From contig JBNLAH010000011.1 in the NCBI GenBank assembly GCA_050302075.1, positions 1-7,560 on the forward strand: a stretch of DNA of 7,560 bases, given 5' to 3'. The position numbers and the translations under genes are program-made. The notes under the pieces were generated by a model. It saw only the letters and a program-made list of their open reading frames with translations, did not search any database and was not told the origin of the DNA. Shown one piece after another: positions 844-7,560 of this stretch (within the stretch, counting starts at the first letter, position 1; every line of letters starts with the position of its first letter). Source of the stretch: Parachlamydiales bacterium (lineage in GTDB: Bacteria; Chlamydiota; Chlamydiia; Chlamydiales; SM23-39).

Positions 844-1344
844 TTAATCTTTCGGCGAAATACAAGGCAAACAATTGAGATAAAAAATTTCAGATTCCAG
901 AGTAAATGAAGGATATTCCTTTATGGTATAGGGAAGTTTAATGCGGGCAAGGGTCAAATGAGGACGATAATTTTCACCATAGTCATTTATAATGGAAAGA
1001 GATTTTGATTGGATTATAGATCTAACTTCTTCGTAAAGTTTGAATAGCTCTTTTTCAAAAGATGTTAACTCAGCCCAGTAGTATCCGTTATTGTCTATTG
1101 TTGATTTAACTAAGCTTAAAGAAGAAAAATGAATTGAAAAAGGGATTGGATATTTTTTTTTTATATTTTCTAATATGACAGAGGTCTCTTCTTCTTTGCA
1201 TTCAAATTGACATATAGTAACATGCGGAATGCCGCCATCCTTAAGAAGGTAACCATAATTTTGTTTAGAAAATAAACTTTGAGATACCTGAATGTATTTT
1301 TTTGCAGCTTCTTTAGATGGCTCTAAAATAATCATATAAGACAT
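844..1344 (-). CDS. 2H phosphoesterase (LigT/ThpR '2'-5' RNA ligase'-like superfamily)
   Basis: Two HxT motifs, PHVTI (HVT at 1216-1224) and PHLTL (HLT at 952-960), 88 aa apart in a 166-aa protein. ATG at 1344 is preferred over TTG at 1347 because GAGGA (1355-1351) lies 6 nt upstream. Confidence 0.88.
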   Translation of the reverse strand: MSYMIILEPSKEAAKKYIQVSQSLFSKQNYGYLLKDGGIPHVTICQFECKEEETSVILENIKKKYPIPFSIHFSSLSLVKSTIDNNGYYWAELTSFEKELFKLYEEVRSIIQSKSLSIINDYGENYRPHLTLARIKLPYTIKEYPSFTLESEIFYLNCLPCISPKD

Positions 1345-1350
1345 CAACTG

Positions 1351-1355
1351 TCCTC
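1351..1355 (-). promoter_or_regulatory. Shine-Dalgarno of the 2H gene, overlapping the DGC stop codon
   Basis: Minus strand reads TGAGGACAGTTGATG. TGA (1356-1354) is the DGC stop, GAGGA is the SD, and a 6-nt spacer precedes ATG. Confidence 0.7.
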
Positions 1356-2247
1356 ATTTTTTTGGACCCCAAAACTGTGTACAGTTTCTTCCAGCAGCCT
1401 TTGCGGCAATTAAGGCTTTGTCAGATCTTTCAATTGTTTCTTCTACAGGAGAGTATAGATCCAAAGGAACTAACCCAAAAGACACCGTTATTTTAATTGG
1501 CTCTGGTGTTTGAACAATATCAGTTTCAGATATTTTAGTGCGTATTTCTTCAATTTTTTTGAACGCGCTATCTGTTTCAGTATTGTTTAAACAAATAAGG
1601 AATTCTTCTCCACCATACCTAAAAATTTTGTCTCCAGCACCTAGGTTGTCTGCAATTAAATGGACTACAGCTGCTAATATACTATCCCCAACCAGATGAT
1701 TATGTTTATCATTAATCTGCTTAAAGTGATCAATATCCATCATCGTAATGAAGCTGCGTTTATGTTCTCTTTTTGCTGATTCTTGCTGCTCTCTTAAAAT
1801 TGTCAACATATTGACTCTGTTAATTGCCCCGGTTAGAGGATCTCGATTGTAAATAAGGTTTTCTAATTCTCTTTTTAAAGTAGTTGTCTCAAGGCGCATC
1901 CTTTCAAGAGAATTAGAAAAATTATCATAATCTGGAGGTGAAATTGAGCTGCCATTTTCAATTAAGTTCAATAGCTTTTTAGCAAGCTGGTGCATCCTTA
2001 TATGCTCTTCACCAATTGATTTAAATCCCGGATGTTCAATTAGTTTTGCAACCTTAGAAGAATAATACCATTGGCCAAATCTACACTCTTTATGTGGGGC
2101 TTCGCTTATGTCATGCTGGTCAGCTGGCAAATGGCAGATAAGTGTTCTTATTAGTGAACTAAACCAGACTTCGTGATTATGTAGAGACTGATCCAAATAA
2201 TTGATAATCATTTGGAGTTCTTCATGCTTCATTTCTTGGAATACCAT
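1354..2247 (-). CDS. dgcZ: CZB (chemoreceptor zinc-binding)-GGDEF diguanylate cyclase, DgcZ/YdeH-like
   Basis: N-terminal H25, C55 (CRFGQW), H82 and H86 match the spacing of the E. coli DgcZ zinc ligands H22/C52/H79/H83. The C-terminal domain has DPLTG..NR, DIDHFKQIND, H..GD, RYGGEEF (GGEEF at 1600-1614), TVSFG and AK..GRN. Length is 297 aa, similar to DgcZ. SD-like AAGGTG lies directly after the upstream stop. The symbol reflects architecture; orthology is not proven. Confidence 0.92.
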   Translation of the reverse strand: MVFQEMKHEELQMIINYLDQSLHNHEVWFSSLIRTLICHLPADQHDISEAPHKECRFGQWYYSSKVAKLIEHPGFKSIGEEHIRMHQLAKKLLNLIENGSSISPPDYDNFSNSLERMRLETTTLKRELENLIYNRDPLTGAINRVNMLTILREQQESAKREHKRSFITMMDIDHFKQINDKHNHLVGDSILAAVVHLIADNLGAGDKIFRYGGEEFLICLNNTETDSAFKKIEEIRTKISETDIVQTPEPIKITVSFGLVPLDLYSPVEETIERSDKALIAAKAAGRNCTQFWGPKK

Positions 2248-2260
2248 CTTAAAAACACCT

Positions 2261-3658
2261 TCACTTTTCTAAAACTGATCTTTTTCCCCTTGTATAAGTA
2301 TAACGATTTTTAGTAAAGAACCTAAAAAAGCCTAAAACTCGCCACCATACTGTAATCGGTCTGTAGGTGAAATTTTCAACTAAGGATAAAAAGACCATTT
2401 TTAGTAAGACTTTAGTAGATTGGTACTTTTTCAGAAAAACTTGCTGCATGATCAAAGAGGCAATTGTTAAAAACATGTCTACTCCCCAAGCAATTAAGAT
2501 AAAATACCACAAAAACGAAAGGTTCAAGACGCCAAAAAAATAGCAAAAAAGAATATAAATATATCCAAAGCTTTCTATTAATGGGCCAATCCCTTCTCCA
2601 AAAAAAAGGTAAGGAAAATGGATAAAGCCTACAATGCCATATTTGGGGTTGAATAGCATATTTCTGCGACGCCAGCAAACTTCAATAATAGAGCAGTGCC
2701 ATCTTTTCCTTTGTATAGCAAGAGAAGAGTATGTTTGCGGTACTTCAGTCCAAACTATTGAATCAAATACATAGTCGATCCGATATGGCTTTTTTTGATC
2801 CCGCATGCTTTTATGGATAGCTAAGGTTAAATCAAGATCACCAGCTAGGACCTGTTTAAATCCTCCAATATCTAGGATTGTCTGTTTATTAAAAAGGCCA
2901 AAGCCACCTGAAATTAAGGGAGTACCACCTAAATCATTCCAGCCTAACCTTCCAAAGAAAAAAGACTTTAGATACTCAATTACTTGCATGGATCCCAAAA
3001 ATGAGGGTGGGAGCCTTACTTCTTTCACCCGGCCTTTTTCTACAACACATCCATTAATGATAGTAAGTATTCCTCCCATAGCATGGATGTCTTTTTCTGT
3101 TAATAAGTGCTGAAAAAGCTTACTAACAGCATCTGGTTCAATAATTGAGTCTGCGTCAATATTGATAAAAAAGGGAGTAGTGCAGGCATTTATCCCAGCA
3201 TTGATGGAATCTTCTCTACCGCCATTTTCTTTATGTATTACCATCAAATTTGGATGAGATTTTGATTGATAATAGTGCTTAATAGGAGCTGTTTTTAAAG
3301 TTGGCCTAAAGATGGGCGGAATGGAAACTAGTTGGTAGGTGTCGATTAATACCTGAAGAGTTTTGTCTGAAGAATCATCATCAACAATAATTATCTTAGC
3401 ATTTGGAAAGTCTACATTTAAAGCAGCTGTTATTGGAGTTAGTATATTGGCTTCTTCATTAAAACAAGGAATAATAATTGAGACTGGAGGTGCAACATCC
3501 AACTTAAATAATTGGTATGATTTTTGCGCTCGTTGTTCTTTTAAGCGGCGAATTAGATTGGGGTTCGTTGCTATTAGAAGGACAATATAAAAGCTATTGA
3601 GCCATAAAAAATAAAATAAGATGAATAAATCAATCACAAAAATGATTTTTTCAGTCAT
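2261..3658 (-). CDS. Processive membrane GT2 glycosyltransferase (PgaC/IcaA/cellulose-synthase-like polysaccharide synthase)
   Basis: N-terminal TM helix, PCFNEE, VDDDSSD, KENGG, IDADS (DxD), QVIEY, LISGGFGLF, GD at the TED position, TEVP, QRKRW (QxxRW at 2699-2713), then several C-terminal TM helices. The start overlaps the HEAT gene stop (ATGACTGA, 3658-3651). Confidence 0.92.
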   Translation of the reverse strand: MTEKIIFVIDLFILFYFLWLNSFYIVLLIATNPNLIRRLKEQRAQKSYQLFKLDVAPPVSIIIPCFNEEANILTPITAALNVDFPNAKIIIVDDDSSDKTLQVLIDTYQLVSIPPIFRPTLKTAPIKHYYQSKSHPNLMVIHKENGGREDSINAGINACTTPFFINIDADSIIEPDAVSKLFQHLLTEKDIHAMGGILTIINGCVVEKGRVKEVRLPPSFLGSMQVIEYLKSFFFGRLGWNDLGGTPLISGGFGLFNKQTILDIGGFKQVLAGDLDLTLAIHKSMRDQKKPYRIDYVFDSIVWTEVPQTYSSLAIQRKRWHCSIIEVCWRRRNMLFNPKYGIVGFIHFPYLFFGEGIGPLIESFGYIYILFCYFFGVLNLSFLWYFILIAWGVDMFLTIASLIMQQVFLKKYQSTKVLLKMVFLSLVENFTYRPITVWWRVLGFFRFFTKNRYTYTRGKRSVLEK

Positions 3659-4694
3659 TAATATCCAATGTTAAAGCATATTGAGCAGCTTCGTAGGCAA
3701 ACTGATCTTTTTCAAAGCTTTGCTGCTTTAATACTTGAATGCCATCTTCTCCTAATCTTTTCAAGGCTAGTGCTGAGTTAATTCGTACCCACCAGCTTTT
3801 ATCTGTTAATAATAAAGAAAGGTCACCAAGAGCTTCTTTAGCTTTTAGATATCCAAGAGAACGAGCTGATACTGAACGAACCTCCCATTCGTTATCTTTT
3901 AGCAGAGGAATTAATAATGAGATGCTAATAGGATTCAAATAACGACCAATAGCACGTATAGCAGCAATCCGTAGGTTTTTATGTGATGAATAAAGATCTC
4001 TCTTGGCTAGCTCGACAATGTGAGGGTTCATGTTATGAGATAAAATCTCAAAGCAGCTTACTCTTGTCCAAGGATCTTTATCTTTTTCTAACCTTTCTTC
4101 TACGAAAGAGAATGATTTAGGGTTGCCTTTTAACAAAGACTCTCTAAAAGGAAATCTTAAGAATCTATTACAGTTCATCTCGTCAATAATAGCATTTACA
4201 GCTGTTGGAGTCCCAAGTTTTGCAGCACAAGCCGCTGCTGAATACTTAATAACGGGGATTGAGTCTTGCAAAAGATGAAGTATTTCTTTTTCATTGTTTA
4301 GATCTGGACAATGAAAAAAACAGCCAATAGCCTGAATTTTTTTTGTCCATCTCTTAGCATAAGTTAATTTTTTTGCTTTGGGAAAAAGAATATTAATAAA
4401 AAGGCTTTCTCTCATTTTTTTCCAATGAGCATCTTGATTTTCTTTGTCTGTATTTATTATCAATGGGATAAGAAACGATATTTTGCGAAATCTGATTGGA
4501 AATAAATTTATTGGCAAAGATCTTTTTTTTTCGATCAACTCTCGAATTTTATCTCTAAATTCAATTAATACTTTTCTCTTCTTTCGAGAAAGGTAAGAAG
4601 AAATAGGCTTTAGAATAAGAGAAAAAAAGACATGAATTACAATAAAGATAAATTGAAAAACAGTAATTAACTTAATAAATTTTAGATAAGACAA
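3651..4694 (-). CDS. HEAT-repeat protein with N-terminal membrane anchor
   Basis: Hydrophobic LITVFQFIFIVIHVFFSLIL followed by basic RKKRK. Repeated HEAT/PBS-lyase-like units: LLQDSIPVIKYSAAACAAKLG, DKDPWTRVSCFEIL, HKNLRIAAIRAIG, LLKDNEWEVRSVSARSLGYL, LLTDKSWWVRINSALALKRLG. TTG start with GGCAGG 6 nt upstream; an in-frame TAA at 4715-4713 bounds the frame. Confidence 0.9.
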   Translation of the reverse strand: MSYLKFIKLITVFQFIFIVIHVFFSLILKPISSYLSRKKRKVLIEFRDKIRELIEKKRSLPINLFPIRFRKISFLIPLIINTDKENQDAHWKKMRESLFINILFPKAKKLTYAKRWTKKIQAIGCFFHCPDLNNEKEILHLLQDSIPVIKYSAAACAAKLGTPTAVNAIIDEMNCNRFLRFPFRESLLKGNPKSFSFVEERLEKDKDPWTRVSCFEILSHNMNPHIVELAKRDLYSSHKNLRIAAIRAIGRYLNPISISLLIPLLKDNEWEVRSVSARSLGYLKAKEALGDLSLLLTDKSWWVRINSALALKRLGEDGIQVLKQQSFEKDQFAYEAAQYALTLDIND

Positions 4695-4804: not shown

Positions 4805-6091
4805 TTATTTAAGGCAATTTTGATCACAAATTTTTAAGATATATTCTCCTATTTCATGATTTGCCAGTTTATCAGGAAAAACCGGCTGATTGCAAAAAAG
4901 AGTTCCTCTTTGAATGTGCTTTCCTGTTCTTTTGACAATAGCTTTAAAAAAATCAAAAAAGCGATATTGCTTATTTGATATTGTAAGATATGCATCTGAA
5001 TCAACTGGATCTGTGAACTGAATCTTATAAAAAAGCTTAAGTGGATTATTTGGATAAGATTCTATATGAAAAAAAGGAGAGCCTTGAACAGTTATGCTTT
5101 GCAAAATCTCAGCGGATTGCTTCGCTAGCTGAATAGATGGAAAAAAAAGATGGGCATCATGAGTCATATGAGCATCAATTTTTACATCATGGATACCCGC
5201 AGCTTCTAAGAATTTTTTCTGATCGATTTGTCGATATAATACCCAAGGTTTTTCATCATTTGTATTTTTTTGAGACAGAGCATTAGTTATAACTAGCAGA
5301 TCGTCTTTATCTAATTGATTGAAAATTTTTCCTAAAATTTTATCCATCTTCTTAAATCCATGTTTTAGCCCTGGGGAAATTTTATCCAAGTTGTGCCATT
5401 GGTGATGCTGCAAGTGCGCTATGGAATTTAGAAAAAGTAAAGAAAAAGTAGGTTTGTGTCTCATTTGATACTTAAGAAAGAAATGAGATGAGACATAATC
5501 TAAAAATGAGATGAAAACAAAAGGTTTAAAACGATGTAAAAAAGAATTTTTCATAAGAAACAGTATCTCTTTTGAAAGAAAGCCTATTGAATTGTTTTTT
5601 TTCGCAATTTTTAGAAGGTCTTTAATTGAGCTGACTAAAACTCGTTTTGAAAATCTAGTATAGTGCTTAGATACGTAGCGGAGCGGTTGTAATATATAGT
5701 TTAGTTCTTCCGGGTAGGCATTTTCAGCAGTTGTCCAAGGGTCTGGAAAGAAAAATCGGCAGTTTGATGCTTTTGATCGCTTTGAATTCATAGCACCCCA
5801 AATACCACTTGAAATTTCCCTGTCTGAAAGTTTTTCCCAAAGTTGTTGGTGATCAGTCCTAGGAGAGTCACCTAGGTGTTTCACTTGGTGCTCAGAAGAA
5901 GAAAGCCCTGTATGTACATTTACCCACTGCACCCAAGGTTCCAAAAAACCACTATCATAAGTATCATCTGTCCATGTTTGACTTTTATGAAAAGTGAGTA
6001 ATTTTTGAATGTTTTTTAAAGGGAGGCTGTTTACAGCTTTTTGCAATAGATCTTCATTAAATTCATTGAGTTCGAGTAATAAAATTTTCAT
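4805..6091 (-). CDS. Alkaline phosphatase/nucleotide pyrophosphatase superfamily-like protein with non-canonical active-site motifs
   Basis: Motif order ILLLELNE ... EPWVQWVNVHTG ... LWEKLS..ISSGIWG ... LFLNSIAHLQHHQW ... MDKILGKIFNQL..DDLLVITNALSQ parallels the AP/NPP core (IDG ... TxPxWxSxxTG ... DxxGH ... D..LG.L....LVVTSDHG). ATG at 6091 (428 aa, ATGA overlap with the upstream stop) is preferred to the track's TTG at 6109. No signal peptide. Confidence 0.65.
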   Translation of the reverse strand: MKILLLELNEFNEDLLQKAVNSLPLKNIQKLLTFHKSQTWTDDTYDSGFLEPWVQWVNVHTGLSSSEHQVKHLGDSPRTDHQQLWEKLSDREISSGIWGAMNSKRSKASNCRFFFPDPWTTAENAYPEELNYILQPLRYVSKHYTRFSKRVLVSSIKDLLKIAKKNNSIGFLSKEILFLMKNSFLHRFKPFVFISFLDYVSSHFFLKYQMRHKPTFSLLFLNSIAHLQHHQWHNLDKISPGLKHGFKKMDKILGKIFNQLDKDDLLVITNALSQKNTNDEKPWVLYRQIDQKKFLEAAGIHDVKIDAHMTHDAHLFFPSIQLAKQSAEILQSITVQGSPFFHIESYPNNPLKLFYKIQFTDPVDSDAYLTISNKQYRFFDFFKAIVKRTGKHIQRGTLFCNQPVFPDKLANHEIGEYILKICDQNCLK

Positions 6092-6783
6092 ATACGTTTT
6101 GATCTCCAATAGTTAAAAAAAACATGCAAAATTAAGGCTGAATCTTTTATTGCTGAAAAATGTGACGAGCTATTTTTTTTATGATAGATAGTTTTAATTG
6201 GGCATTCTTCAATTTTTAAGTTATCTCTTAAAGCTAACAGTAAACATCGAAATTCCAATTCATATCGATCTCCGTAAATTTCTTTTTCAAATTTTTGAAC
6301 GACTGTTTTATTGAAGGCTCTGTATCCAGATTGAGTATCAATAGGGGCCTTAGGAAAAAGTCTATGTAAAAGAAATGAGATAATTAGGTTTGGAAGCCGC
6401 CTTATAAAAGGTGCATGTTTGAAGTTTCTACTTCCAATTACAAAGTCAGCTCCTTTAGCAACACAGGTTGCTATTGCTGGAATTTCAGATGGTAGATGTT
6501 GCCCATCTGAATCTATTGTGAGCAATGTGTCAAAAGAAATATGATTTAAAGCATATTGAAATCCTTTAAGTAAGGCTACACCTTTACCTTTGTTCTCAGA
6601 AAAAGTTATTAAATGTACTTTTTCTTTATCTTTAGATTGAAATTCCTGGAGGATTTTAGGGGTTTGATCTGTTGATCCATCGTCTATAAGAATCAAAGAT
6701 GTACATTGAGGTAAGATTTGCTCGATTACTGGTCTGCAATATTTTTCTACATTATAGCAGGGGACAACAATGCTAAGTCTCAA
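6088..6783 (-). CDS. GT2 glycosyltransferase, DPM1-like (polyprenol-phosphate glycosyltransferase type)
   Basis: SIVVPCYN, IDDGSTD, NKGKG, DSDGQH, VIGSR, DTQSGYR, RYELE and SHF motifs. TTG at 6783 is preferred because GGAG (6793-6790) lies 6 nt upstream, giving MRLSIVVPCYN. The track's start at 6795 has no evident SD. Confidence 0.9.
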   Translation of the reverse strand: MRLSIVVPCYNVEKYCRPVIEQILPQCTSLILIDDGSTDQTPKILQEFQSKDKEKVHLITFSENKGKGVALLKGFQYALNHISFDTLLTIDSDGQHLPSEIPAIATCVAKGADFVIGSRNFKHAPFIRRLPNLIISFLLHRLFPKAPIDTQSGYRAFNKTVVQKFEKEIYGDRYELEFRCLLLALRDNLKIEECPIKTIYHKKNSSSHFSAIKDSALILHVFFNYWRSKRI

Positions 6784-6927
6784 AGTTAACTCCAAAAGGG
6801 GAATAACTTTTTGTTTTATATAAAAAAAATATTTTTGTCAGCCTCTTTGTAAATTGAAATATTGAAAAAGAGATAATAATGGAAATTACTAGAGAATTTA
6901 ATTATTAAATTTTGATAAAAATTGATT

Positions 6928-6954: not shown

Positions 6955-7560
6955 TTAGGCTATCTTCAATTTATGCGCGTAAATCTTAACCCAGCTAAGG
7001 AACTTATTAGCATCAATTGGGTTATCACGAAGCAATATATTCACTATATTTCTTAATTCTTTTATAGAGCGTGGCATCCCAGCAATAGTAAGCTTGTTAG
7101 ATCTAAGTTCGAGAACTCTTAGTTGTATTAATTTACCAATAGATTCAGGTAAGGCAATTAGTCGGTTGTTATTGAGATAGAGATTCAATAGATTTTCCAA
7201 GCCAGCTATATCCTTAGGTAAAACAGTAAGTTGGTTGTTATCAAGGGATAGAAGACTTAGCTGTTTTAAATTACCGATAGATTCAGGCAAAAAGGTAAGC
7301 TTGTTAATATTAAGGTTAATAAATCCTAGCTTTATTAATTTACCGATAGACTCAGGTAAAAAAGTAAGCTTGTTAGTACAAATATTGAGAATGTTTAGCT
7401 CTATTAATTCACCGATAGACTCAGGTAAAAAAGTAAGCTTGTTATTATAAAGGTGGAGGAGAGTTAGCTGCTTTAAACCACCAATAGACTCAGGTAAAAA
7501 AGTAAGCTTGTTAGTACAAATATTGAGAATGTTTAGCTCTATTAATTCACCGATAGACTC
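6955..7560 (-). CDS. Partial CDS (3' part; begins beyond right edge): leucine-rich repeat protein with 23-aa LRRs
   Basis: The frame is open from 7560, not just from the track's 7290: ESIGELIELNILNICTNKLTFLP / ESIGGLKQLTLLHLYNNKLTFLP / ESIGELIELNILNICTNKLTFLP / ESIGKLIKLGFINLNINKLTFLP / ESIGNLKQLSLLSLDNNQLTVLP / KDIAGLENLLNLYLNNNRLIALP / ESIGKLIQLRVLELRSNKLTIAGMP / RSIKELRNIVNILLRDNPI... This fits the consensus LxxLxxLxLxxNxLxxLPxxIG. 201 aa are visible. Confidence 0.95.
   Translation of the reverse strand, partial: ESIGELIELNILNICTNKLTFLPESIGGLKQLTLLHLYNNKLTFLPESIGELIELNILNICTNKLTFLPESIGKLIKLGFINLNINKLTFLPESIGNLKQLSLLSLDNNQLTVLPKDIAGLENLLNLYLNNNRLIALPESIGKLIQLRVLELRSNKLTIAGMPRSIKELRNIVNILLRDNPIDANKFLSWVKIYAHKLKIA
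7147..7560. repeat. 69-bp tandem coding repeat (LRR units)
   Basis: The 30-nt core atagactcaggtaaaaaagtaagcttgtta occurs exactly at 7346, 7415 and 7484, with a variant at 7277. Positions 7346-7422 are identical to 7484-7560. Confidence 0.95.

Follow-up and report, generated by a model that had tools for sequence, protein, structure and literature searches.

Do four consecutive genes on a short contig of a Parachlamydiales bacterium make up a self-contained polysaccharide system switched by cyclic di-GMP (c-di-GMP)? In order of transcription, the genes encode a HEAT-repeat protein, a membrane-bound family 2 glycosyltransferase (GT2), a diguanylate cyclase with CZB and GGDEF domains, and a 2H phosphoesterase. 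The window analyzed here is the entire contig JBNLAH010000011.1 (C11; 7,560 bases) of the source genome, G000, which has 1.84 Mb, 33.5% GC, and a completeness of 96%; other G and L labels designate the genomes of relatives and mapped loci. We find that the four-gene cassette is real and conserved and that in it one clade has coupled a polysaccharide module to a cyclase predicted to be zinc-gated, by a mechanism that we infer. With moderate confidence, we propose that HEAT and GT2 form the core of a synthase-dependent polysaccharide system that is switched on by the DgcZ-type cyclase, with the 2H protein as an accessory.

As originally predicted, the four genes are co-oriented, HEAT and GT2 overlap by 8 nt, and gaps of 13 and 9 nt separate the following genes; both gap junctions carry motifs resembling Shine-Dalgarno (SD) sequences, AGGTG directly after the GT2 stop codon and GAGG on the cyclase stop codon. 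An alternative TTG start at 1347 would reduce the gap between the cyclase and 2H genes to 6 nt. Among the 103 genomes of the family, five, spread over four genera, were found to encode a close orthologue of the cyclase, in each case within a HEAT-GT2-cyclase-2H cassette. The gene order and the 8-nt overlap are the same in L017, L018, L056, L057, and L144, and L143 begins inside GT2. Five metagenome loci comprise two new cassettes (L143 and L144), one that repeats a known cassette, and two other contexts; the cyclases of L146 and L147, matching at 47 to 50%, lie outside a cassette. Among 400 genomes of the phylum, six have a full-length match to the cyclase: three in cassettes, two as a lone cyclase, and one in G377, a member of another family that has HEAT-GT2-cyclase with no adjoining 2H gene. 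The cassette GT2s form a single clade (FastTree support of 0.99, midpoint-rooted), within which the cyclase lies 6 to 25 nt directly downstream of GT2 in all eight members seen as DNA and 2H is kept in seven of the eight; the separation of these genes from HEAT-GT2, which was to refute the original prediction, is thus not what this clade displays. Purifying selection acts on all four genes (nonsynonymous/synonymous rate ratios in four pairs of 0.04 to 0.07 for GT2, 0.07 to 0.09 for the cyclase, 0.17 to 0.18 for HEAT, and 0.13 to 0.21 for 2H), and the tree distances of GT2, cyclase, and 2H correlate over nine sets, two of them grouped solely via contigs of equal size (Mantel rho of 0.82 to 0.84, p<0.001). 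The four-gene block is co-inherited as a unit.

The cyclase, of about 300 residues, matches the DgcZ structure 4h54 over its full length, with its CZB domain at the N terminus and its GGDEF domain at the C terminus, and scores 253.7 bits against NCBIfam PRK09894 (cutoff of 256). Its residues H25, C55, H82, and H86, invariant among homologues, align with the His/Cys/His/His zinc ligands of structure 3t9o. The RYGGEEF motif is kept, and D171, N179, D180, D188, and K277 are invariant, but the RxxD inhibitory site, which many relatives retain, is replaced by GAGD. No other intact GGDEF gene was detected in G000 (one GGDEF match), a further GGDEF-like domain on contig C4 being degenerate (E value of 0.016) and devoid of RxxD. 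No match to EAL, HD_5 (HD-GYP), or PilZ was obtained in G000, and its MshEN match is a GspE-like frame without the binding motif. Since the cyclase is the sole intact GGDEF protein and since no PilZ or motif-bearing MshEN receptor was found, the neighboring synthase is its most evident target. A search for c-di-GMP-I riboswitches gave no signal in any control genome and is hence uninformative. According to a study on E. coli, DgcZ is inhibited by zinc, is activated by HOCl through C52, and drives the production of poly-GlcNAc (PMC8262984). Any encounter of the chlamydial cyclase with zinc or oxidants inside a protist host is speculative. In another report, c-di-GMP systems are described as sparse, if they exist, in the genomes of chlamydiae (PMC4989314), and our literature search, with most subscription journals outside it, found no paper linking environmental chlamydiae with a diguanylate cyclase. 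Other GGDEF-like proteins were noted along the way. Several chlamydial genomes (L069 to L072) encode a conserved protein of about 310 residues with a degenerate GGDEF domain, adjoining a GidA/MnmG-like and a lipoate-ligase-like gene, and genomes of family f27 (L227, L228, and L231) encode a protein of about 300 residues with a receiver-like start and a high-scoring GGDEF domain, in a conserved MarC-like context; of these three f27 genomes, two are not among the EAL-positive ones.

In GT2, D94/D98, D168-x-D170, D274, and Q316-R-K-R-W320 are invariant in 58 aligned homologues. The predicted structure (pLDDT of 90.9) finds its best Foldseek matches in hyaluronan synthases (HAS), followed by BcsA and chitin synthases (Chs) (E values of 2e-16 to 1e-13, TM scores of 0.5 to 0.65), and has, like these enzymes, both a GT-A domain and membrane helices. 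By score, the protein is not a PgaC, given that its best NCBIfam match, PgaC_IcaA (TIGR03937), reaches 105 bits against a cutoff of 422, and sequence searches of GT2 and 2H against solved structures returned nothing close. At 16 alignment columns that are fixed in 39 distant GT2 rows, the 15 closest rows have changes in common, four intermediate rows having been left out of the comparison; these include K148R, A149E, A252G, E273G, and G323S, and the cyclase-linked clade is also marked by G272A. A changed donor or linkage is plausible. The HEAT protein, with one N-terminal membrane helix (residues 9 to 27, from hydropathy), is a near-constant partner of GT2 and likely acts as a co-subunit of the synthase or as a regulatory platform. 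Like the original prediction, we infer that HEAT serves as the adaptor and c-di-GMP as the switch.

Homologues of GT2 are not confined to cassettes and were found in 17 of the 103 family genomes and 51 of the 401 phylum genomes. We mapped 59 GT2 loci within a radius of 6 kb, leaving out eight further listed places; four of the 59 have flanks of 1.5 kb only, and several stop at contig ends. HEAT is present in 50 of these loci and a tetratricopeptide repeat (TPR)/beta-barrel gene in 42, while a receiver domain (REC) occurs in 39, a CZB cyclase in 7, neither in 13, and both in none. The TPR/beta-barrel gene accompanies 5 of the 7 cyclase-type and 29 of the 39 receiver-type loci, and receiver, histidine phosphotransfer (Hpt), or kinase genes adjoin none of the seven related cyclase-type loci and are absent from the window. 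Fusions of Hpt and REC that also contain a degenerate GGDEF domain account for many of the receiver proteins. Of 14 plasmid records listed with a GT2 of the family, we inspected 11, 10 of which are annotated; HEAT immediately precedes GT2 in nine of these ten, with a response regulator just upstream in six, a YaiO or TPR gene in six, and an Hpt gene in two. A receiver-YaiO/TPR-HEAT-GT2 arrangement is found on annotated plasmids of Mesorhizobium, Erythrobacter, Devosia, and Emticicia, and two haloarchaea have the layout receiver-HEAT-GT2. HEAT-GT2 is thus an old and widespread module that is normally wired to a phosphorelay. The four-part combination on which the original prediction was built is a specific trait of one chlamydial clade; in other lineages, haloarchaea among them, HEAT-GT2 is associated with genes of a phosphorelay. 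Our literature searches, with most subscription journals outside them, returned no description of the HEAT-GT2-barrel family. Two observations on its members are added here. Chlamydial Hpt-REC-REC-(degenerate GGDEF)-REC proteins are encoded upstream of HEAT at L019, L021, L022, L194, and L198 to L204; their GGEEF loop is gone, and RxxD is left solely in L194 among 13 aligned. On a Halosolutus plasmid (L269), receiver-HEAT-GT2 is followed by genes for a sugar-phosphate nucleotidyltransferase and glmS, which hints at an amino-sugar donor.

How the cassette relates to characterized systems follows from these features. It shares with E. coli PgaABCD plus DgcZ (YdeH) a full-length DgcZ-type CZB-GGDEF cyclase, a membrane GT2 of the size of PgaC, and, in relatives, a TPR/barrel protein. 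Unlike Pga, it has HEAT at the place of PgaD, the cyclase inside the operon, a 2H gene after the cyclase, a GT2 that fails the PgaC cutoff, and no linked deacetylase (PgaB) or PgaD among the eight open reading frames (ORFs) of the window; in G000, a PF01522 deacetylase gene lies unlinked on C4, and PF01522 was found, only unlinked, in three of the five cassette genomes. The cassette would thus operate in the manner of Pga plus DgcZ without being a Pga member. With the receiver-YaiO/TPR-HEAT-GT2(-Hpt) loci of RefSeq (for example, Mesorhizobium ciceri pMESCI01, Legionella adelaidensis, Erythrobacter aureus, and Haloarcula halophila), it has in common the HEAT-GT2 pair, with GT2s that are 30 to 35% identical, and a barrel/TPR protein where there is an outer membrane, whereas the CZB cyclase in the regulatory slot, the altered GT2 motifs, and the added 2H are its own. 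The cassette belongs to this HEAT-GT2-barrel family, in which a GT2 of 450 to 490 residues abuts HEAT. The Bcs, Pel, and Nfr systems resemble it in the processive GT2 fold, TPR/barrel export, and control by a cyclase, but no PilZ, PelD-type, or MshEN receptor was found in the cassette or in G000. For Xanthomonas XagABCD, considered as a possible counterpart by published description only, no link to a HEAT gene emerged; in these descriptions, XagB-like proteins are annotated as monoglucosyldiacylglycerol synthase.

The description of the cassette as self-contained is one that we do not support, since the TPR/beta-barrel export gene that is normal in such loci is missing from the window; none of the eight ORFs scanned against Pfam encodes PilZ, a deacetylase, or an export protein, in agreement with the original prediction. 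In G004, G026, G061, and G110, a TPR protein of 615 to 630 residues is encoded divergently upstream of HEAT, and its C-terminal half has a feature score of 0.94 to 0.95 to the barrel clusters of PgaA, PelB, and BcsC, an assignment made from language-model features only. No remnant of a cognate barrel gene was detected in the 110-nt gap between HEAT and the upstream gene of the alkaline phosphatase (ALP) superfamily in G000. A second system, of the receiver type, is present on C4 of G000 (positions 229300 to 238200; L020) and includes a GT2 paralogue of 40% identity, a TPR/barrel protein of 652 residues, a MASE3 kinase, a REC-Hpt protein whose GGDEF domain is highly degenerate, and CHASE-PAS and kinase genes, with its HEAT gene on the opposite strand. 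In L144, from a relative of 91% identity, 26 nt separate the 2H gene from the end of a barrel gene whose product is 92.5% identical to the C4 barrel of G000. The simplest reading is that the G000 cassette probably shares the C4 barrel of the receiver-type system for export; loss of a cognate barrel gene in the assembly is possible.

Starting from the gene order, its conservation and selection, the intact catalytic and zinc-ligand residues, the folds, and the non-overlap of cyclase and receiver loci among those mapped, we propose the following model, the steps of which go beyond these observations. GT2, to judge by its fold and motifs, would polymerize and translocate a surface polysaccharide, forming with HEAT the inner-membrane core; an amino-sugar donor is hinted at solely by GlmS/nucleotidyltransferase and UDP-sugar dehydrogenase neighbors in distant loci. 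HEAT would be the membrane-anchored partner via which the regulator acts, this being a receiver protein in most lineages. In the cassette clade, the receiver input would have disappeared, the cyclase would have been acquired, and GT2 motifs would have been remodeled; the sister clade (L187 and L188) suggests from its gene content that the receiver may have been lost first and the cyclase gained later. By analogy with E. coli DgcZ, low zinc, through loss of the metal from CZB, or oxidation of the cysteine would activate the cyclase, and c-di-GMP may then act on GT2 or HEAT via a site with no known motif. Export would proceed through a TPR/beta-barrel protein, whose gene adjoins HEAT divergently in relatives; G000 would probably draw on the barrel of the receiver-type system on C4.

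Several observations weigh against this model. Neither HEAT nor GT2 has a known c-di-GMP-binding motif (no PilZ pair, no RxxD), and no PgaD-like gene exists among the ORFs of the window, to which that search was limited. In the GED motif, this GT2 has a Gly (G273) where all 39 outgroup rows have Glu, and the product and activity of the enzyme are therefore uncertain. The G000 cassette has no cognate barrel, and in G110 an insert of 2.7 kb displaces the 5' third of HEAT, the other three genes being intact. CZB cyclases resembling this one occur on their own in two other chlamydial genomes (L189 and L190) and in L146 and L147. The cyclase-type loci form one clade, so that their mutual exclusion with receivers counts as one event and not as seven. 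Finally, L187 and L188 have HEAT-GT2-barrel with neither regulator adjoining, from which it follows that the HEAT-GT2 core may run without either.

The role of the 2H protein can be considered apart from that of the other three genes. The protein has the two expected motifs, H41-x-T43 and H129-x-T131, and the bilobed 2H fold (Z scores of 14.7 to 8.1 to 21 2H chains), with cellular cyclic phosphodiesterases (CPDases) and LigT as its best structural matches (Z of 14.7 to 13.1) and phage Acb1 behind them (Z of 11.9); its score against the LigT/ThpR family TIGR02258 is 32.3 bits, for a cutoff of 65.7. It thus shares the fold and both HxT motifs with LigT/ThpR, plant and Deinococcus CPDases, YjcG, and Acb1, but it is only 10 to 21% identical to these enzymes and ends earlier than its own family, and none of them was reported, in what we consulted, to cleave c-di-GMP. 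We consider the 2H protein to be probably an accessory nucleotide phosphodiesterase. An evenly balanced possibility, in our estimation, is that it is a general LigT/CPDase-like cyclic-phosphate phosphodiesterase, often paired with a HAD phosphatase, which was captured once at the end of the operon and hitchhikes unrelated to c-di-GMP, a view that is compatible with the model for the other three genes. The family is found mostly outside cassettes: of the 401 phylum genomes, 27 have a member, in 24 of these outside the cassette (in G000, the cassette 2H is the only one), and 49 of 53 prokaryotic 2H loci are not cassettes and have varied neighbors (two of the 49 have a GGDEF gene 3 to 4 kb away). 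Furthermore, the evolutionary rate of 2H is about double that of GT2 and the cyclase, and at least 4 of 17 non-cassette chlamydial loci have an adjoining ORF with a HAD-type FDCDG/IFDCD start motif, identified by eye. On the other hand, the gene is kept under selection right behind the cyclase across lineages at 34 to 50% identity, and the cassette-linked proteins have in common a truncation and a new invariant cysteine: they belong to a clade of 17 members (support of 0.995), all ending about 12 to 15 residues earlier than their own family, with Cys161 in 16 of the 16 members scored versus 1% elsewhere. As a separate observation, the non-cassette chlamydial 2H genes of L240, L251, L254, and L255 adjoin genes for HAD-like phosphatases, with which they may form a two-step pair for cyclic-phosphate salvage.

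A less likely alternative to the switch itself, which we regard as a minority view, holds that the cyclase is co-transcribed but does not control the synthase, GT2 being constitutive or otherwise controlled and c-di-GMP having another, unrecognized target. The lack of receptor motifs in HEAT and GT2, the sister clade without an adjoining regulator, and the haloarchaeal members with receivers only are all consistent with it. It has to explain, however, why the cyclase has been kept at so short a distance from GT2 in every member of the clade seen as DNA, and searches of G000 revealed none of the other receptor families (PilZ, motif-bearing MshEN, or RxxD-GGDEF).

Rather unlikely, and an addition to the switch model more than a competitor, is that the truncated 2H is a dedicated eraser of c-di-GMP or pGpG that replaces EAL and HD-GYP proteins. 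Placement speaks for it: 12 of the 17 truncated 2H proteins are found with a CZB cyclase, five seen as DNA and seven via contigs of equal size, the other five being on contigs of 3.2 kb or less; this size pairing covered 37 of 120 2H contigs and 39 of 120 cyclase contigs and gave one match outside the clade, so that single matches may be due to chance. No EAL match was found in G000, G004, G026, G061, or G110, and no HD_5 match either; what matches DHH in G000, G004, and G110 is a frame of 580 to 600 residues, the size of RecJ. The loss of RxxD from the cyclase of the window, and the fold shared with the 2H enzymes Acb1 and poxvirus cGAMP phosphodiesterase, which cleave cyclic dinucleotides, point in the same direction. 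Yet RxxD is retained in many cassette cyclases that come with 2H, and the structure is closer to cellular CPDases and LigT than to Acb1, which is reported to cut on the 3' side of adenosine and to require an AMP (PMC9117128). EAL is present in just 7 of the 401 phylum genomes, and its lack is therefore the norm. Moreover, G377 has HEAT-GT2-cyclase with no adjoining 2H, gave no HD_5 match, and is among neither the EAL-positive nor the 2H-positive genomes, and two more GT2/cyclase pairs of its subclade have no 2H on a contig of equal size (37 sizes entered). The eraser function in the original prediction stays a minority view: the truncated subfamily has been placed solely beside this cyclase, but a sister subclade without 2H and wider relatives that are often HAD-linked count against it. 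Doubtful in our eyes is the fuller scheme of a minimal, complete c-di-GMP circuit, with a zinc- or oxidant-gated writer, a HEAT-GT2 receptor rewired from a phosphorelay, a truncated-2H eraser, and a coat that would respond to the host compartment. Least probable of all, we find it hard to credit that GT2 is not a polymerase and transfers individual sugars onto a lipid or protein of the envelope together with the upstream short GT2 and ALP-family genes, as the clade-specific changes (GED to AGD, GGKAD to GGRED, and others), the recurrence of polyprenol-phosphate-glycosyltransferase-like and ALP-family genes upstream, and the missing cognate barrel in G000 could suggest, because QxxRW and the catalytic Asp residues are retained, the fold is closest to processive synthases, and a TPR/barrel exporter accompanies most of the related cyclase-type loci.

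Two genes upstream of HEAT, listed with the other features in Table 1, are recurring members of the wider locus. ALP homologues of 50 to 71% adjoin the cassettes L017, L056, and L064 and the non-cyclase loci L026, L212, and L214, and their product is possibly a polymer-modifying enzyme. The short GT2, whose best NCBIfam matches (AglJ, PpgS, and ArnC) are all under the cutoff, has homologues at L017, L025, L026, and L214. A scan for promoters and terminators performed no better than on shuffled sequences (22 promoter-like sites versus 29.4 expected), and an Rfam search of the window gave no match. Contamination or recent transfer was considered and rejected because the GC and GC3 values of the four genes are typical, within about 1.3 standard deviations of the genome mean, the left end of C11 resembles another G000 contig at 94%, and the cassette is present in relatives. 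A leucine-rich-repeat gene (6955 to 7560) and an unclassified ORF (1 to 732) are truncated where the contig ends; repeated relatives of both occur in other parts of G000, which explains the contig breaks. In L057 (11920 to 14680), from G110, two genes replace the 5' part of HEAT, through insertion or misassembly, one of which, on inspection by eye, opens with MQKEYICPMH, a motif like that of heavy-metal ATPases.

Table 1. Positions of the cassette genes, their junction motifs, and the upstream genes in the window
Feature	Coordinates	Strand	Basis and remarks
HEAT-repeat gene	3651-4694	-	Pfam HEAT_2, 1.5e-21; TTG start uncertain by a few codons
Membrane GT2 gene	2261-3658	-	Pfam Glycos_transf_2, above cutoff
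CZB-GGDEF cyclase gene	1354-2247	-	Pfam CZB (residues 25-92) and GGDEF (134-288), above cutoffs
2H phosphoesterase gene	844-1344	-	Pfam LigT_PEase, above cutoff; ATG start
SD-like AGGTG	2256-2260	-	Sequence; abuts GT2 stop, 8 nt ahead of cyclase ATG
SD-like GAGG	1352-1355	-	Sequence; overlaps cyclase stop, precedes 2H start
ALP-superfamily gene	4805-6109	-	PF01663, 23.4 bits (cutoff of 23)
Short soluble GT2 gene, polyprenol-phosphate glycosyltransferase-like	6088-6795	-	PF00535, 1.4e-24; overlaps ALP gene

Together, our results describe a small candidate c-di-GMP system in the Chlamydiota, a phylum in which such systems have been called sparse. Because it combines a single cyclase with no known receptor or phosphodiesterase, the cassette offers an uncluttered setting in which a new c-di-GMP-binding site and, with lower probability, a third class of c-di-GMP phosphodiesterase might be sought. 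The results also indicate a widespread HEAT-GT2-barrel polysaccharide family, extending from Proteobacteria to haloarchaea, and suggest that its input can be swapped from a phosphorelay to c-di-GMP.

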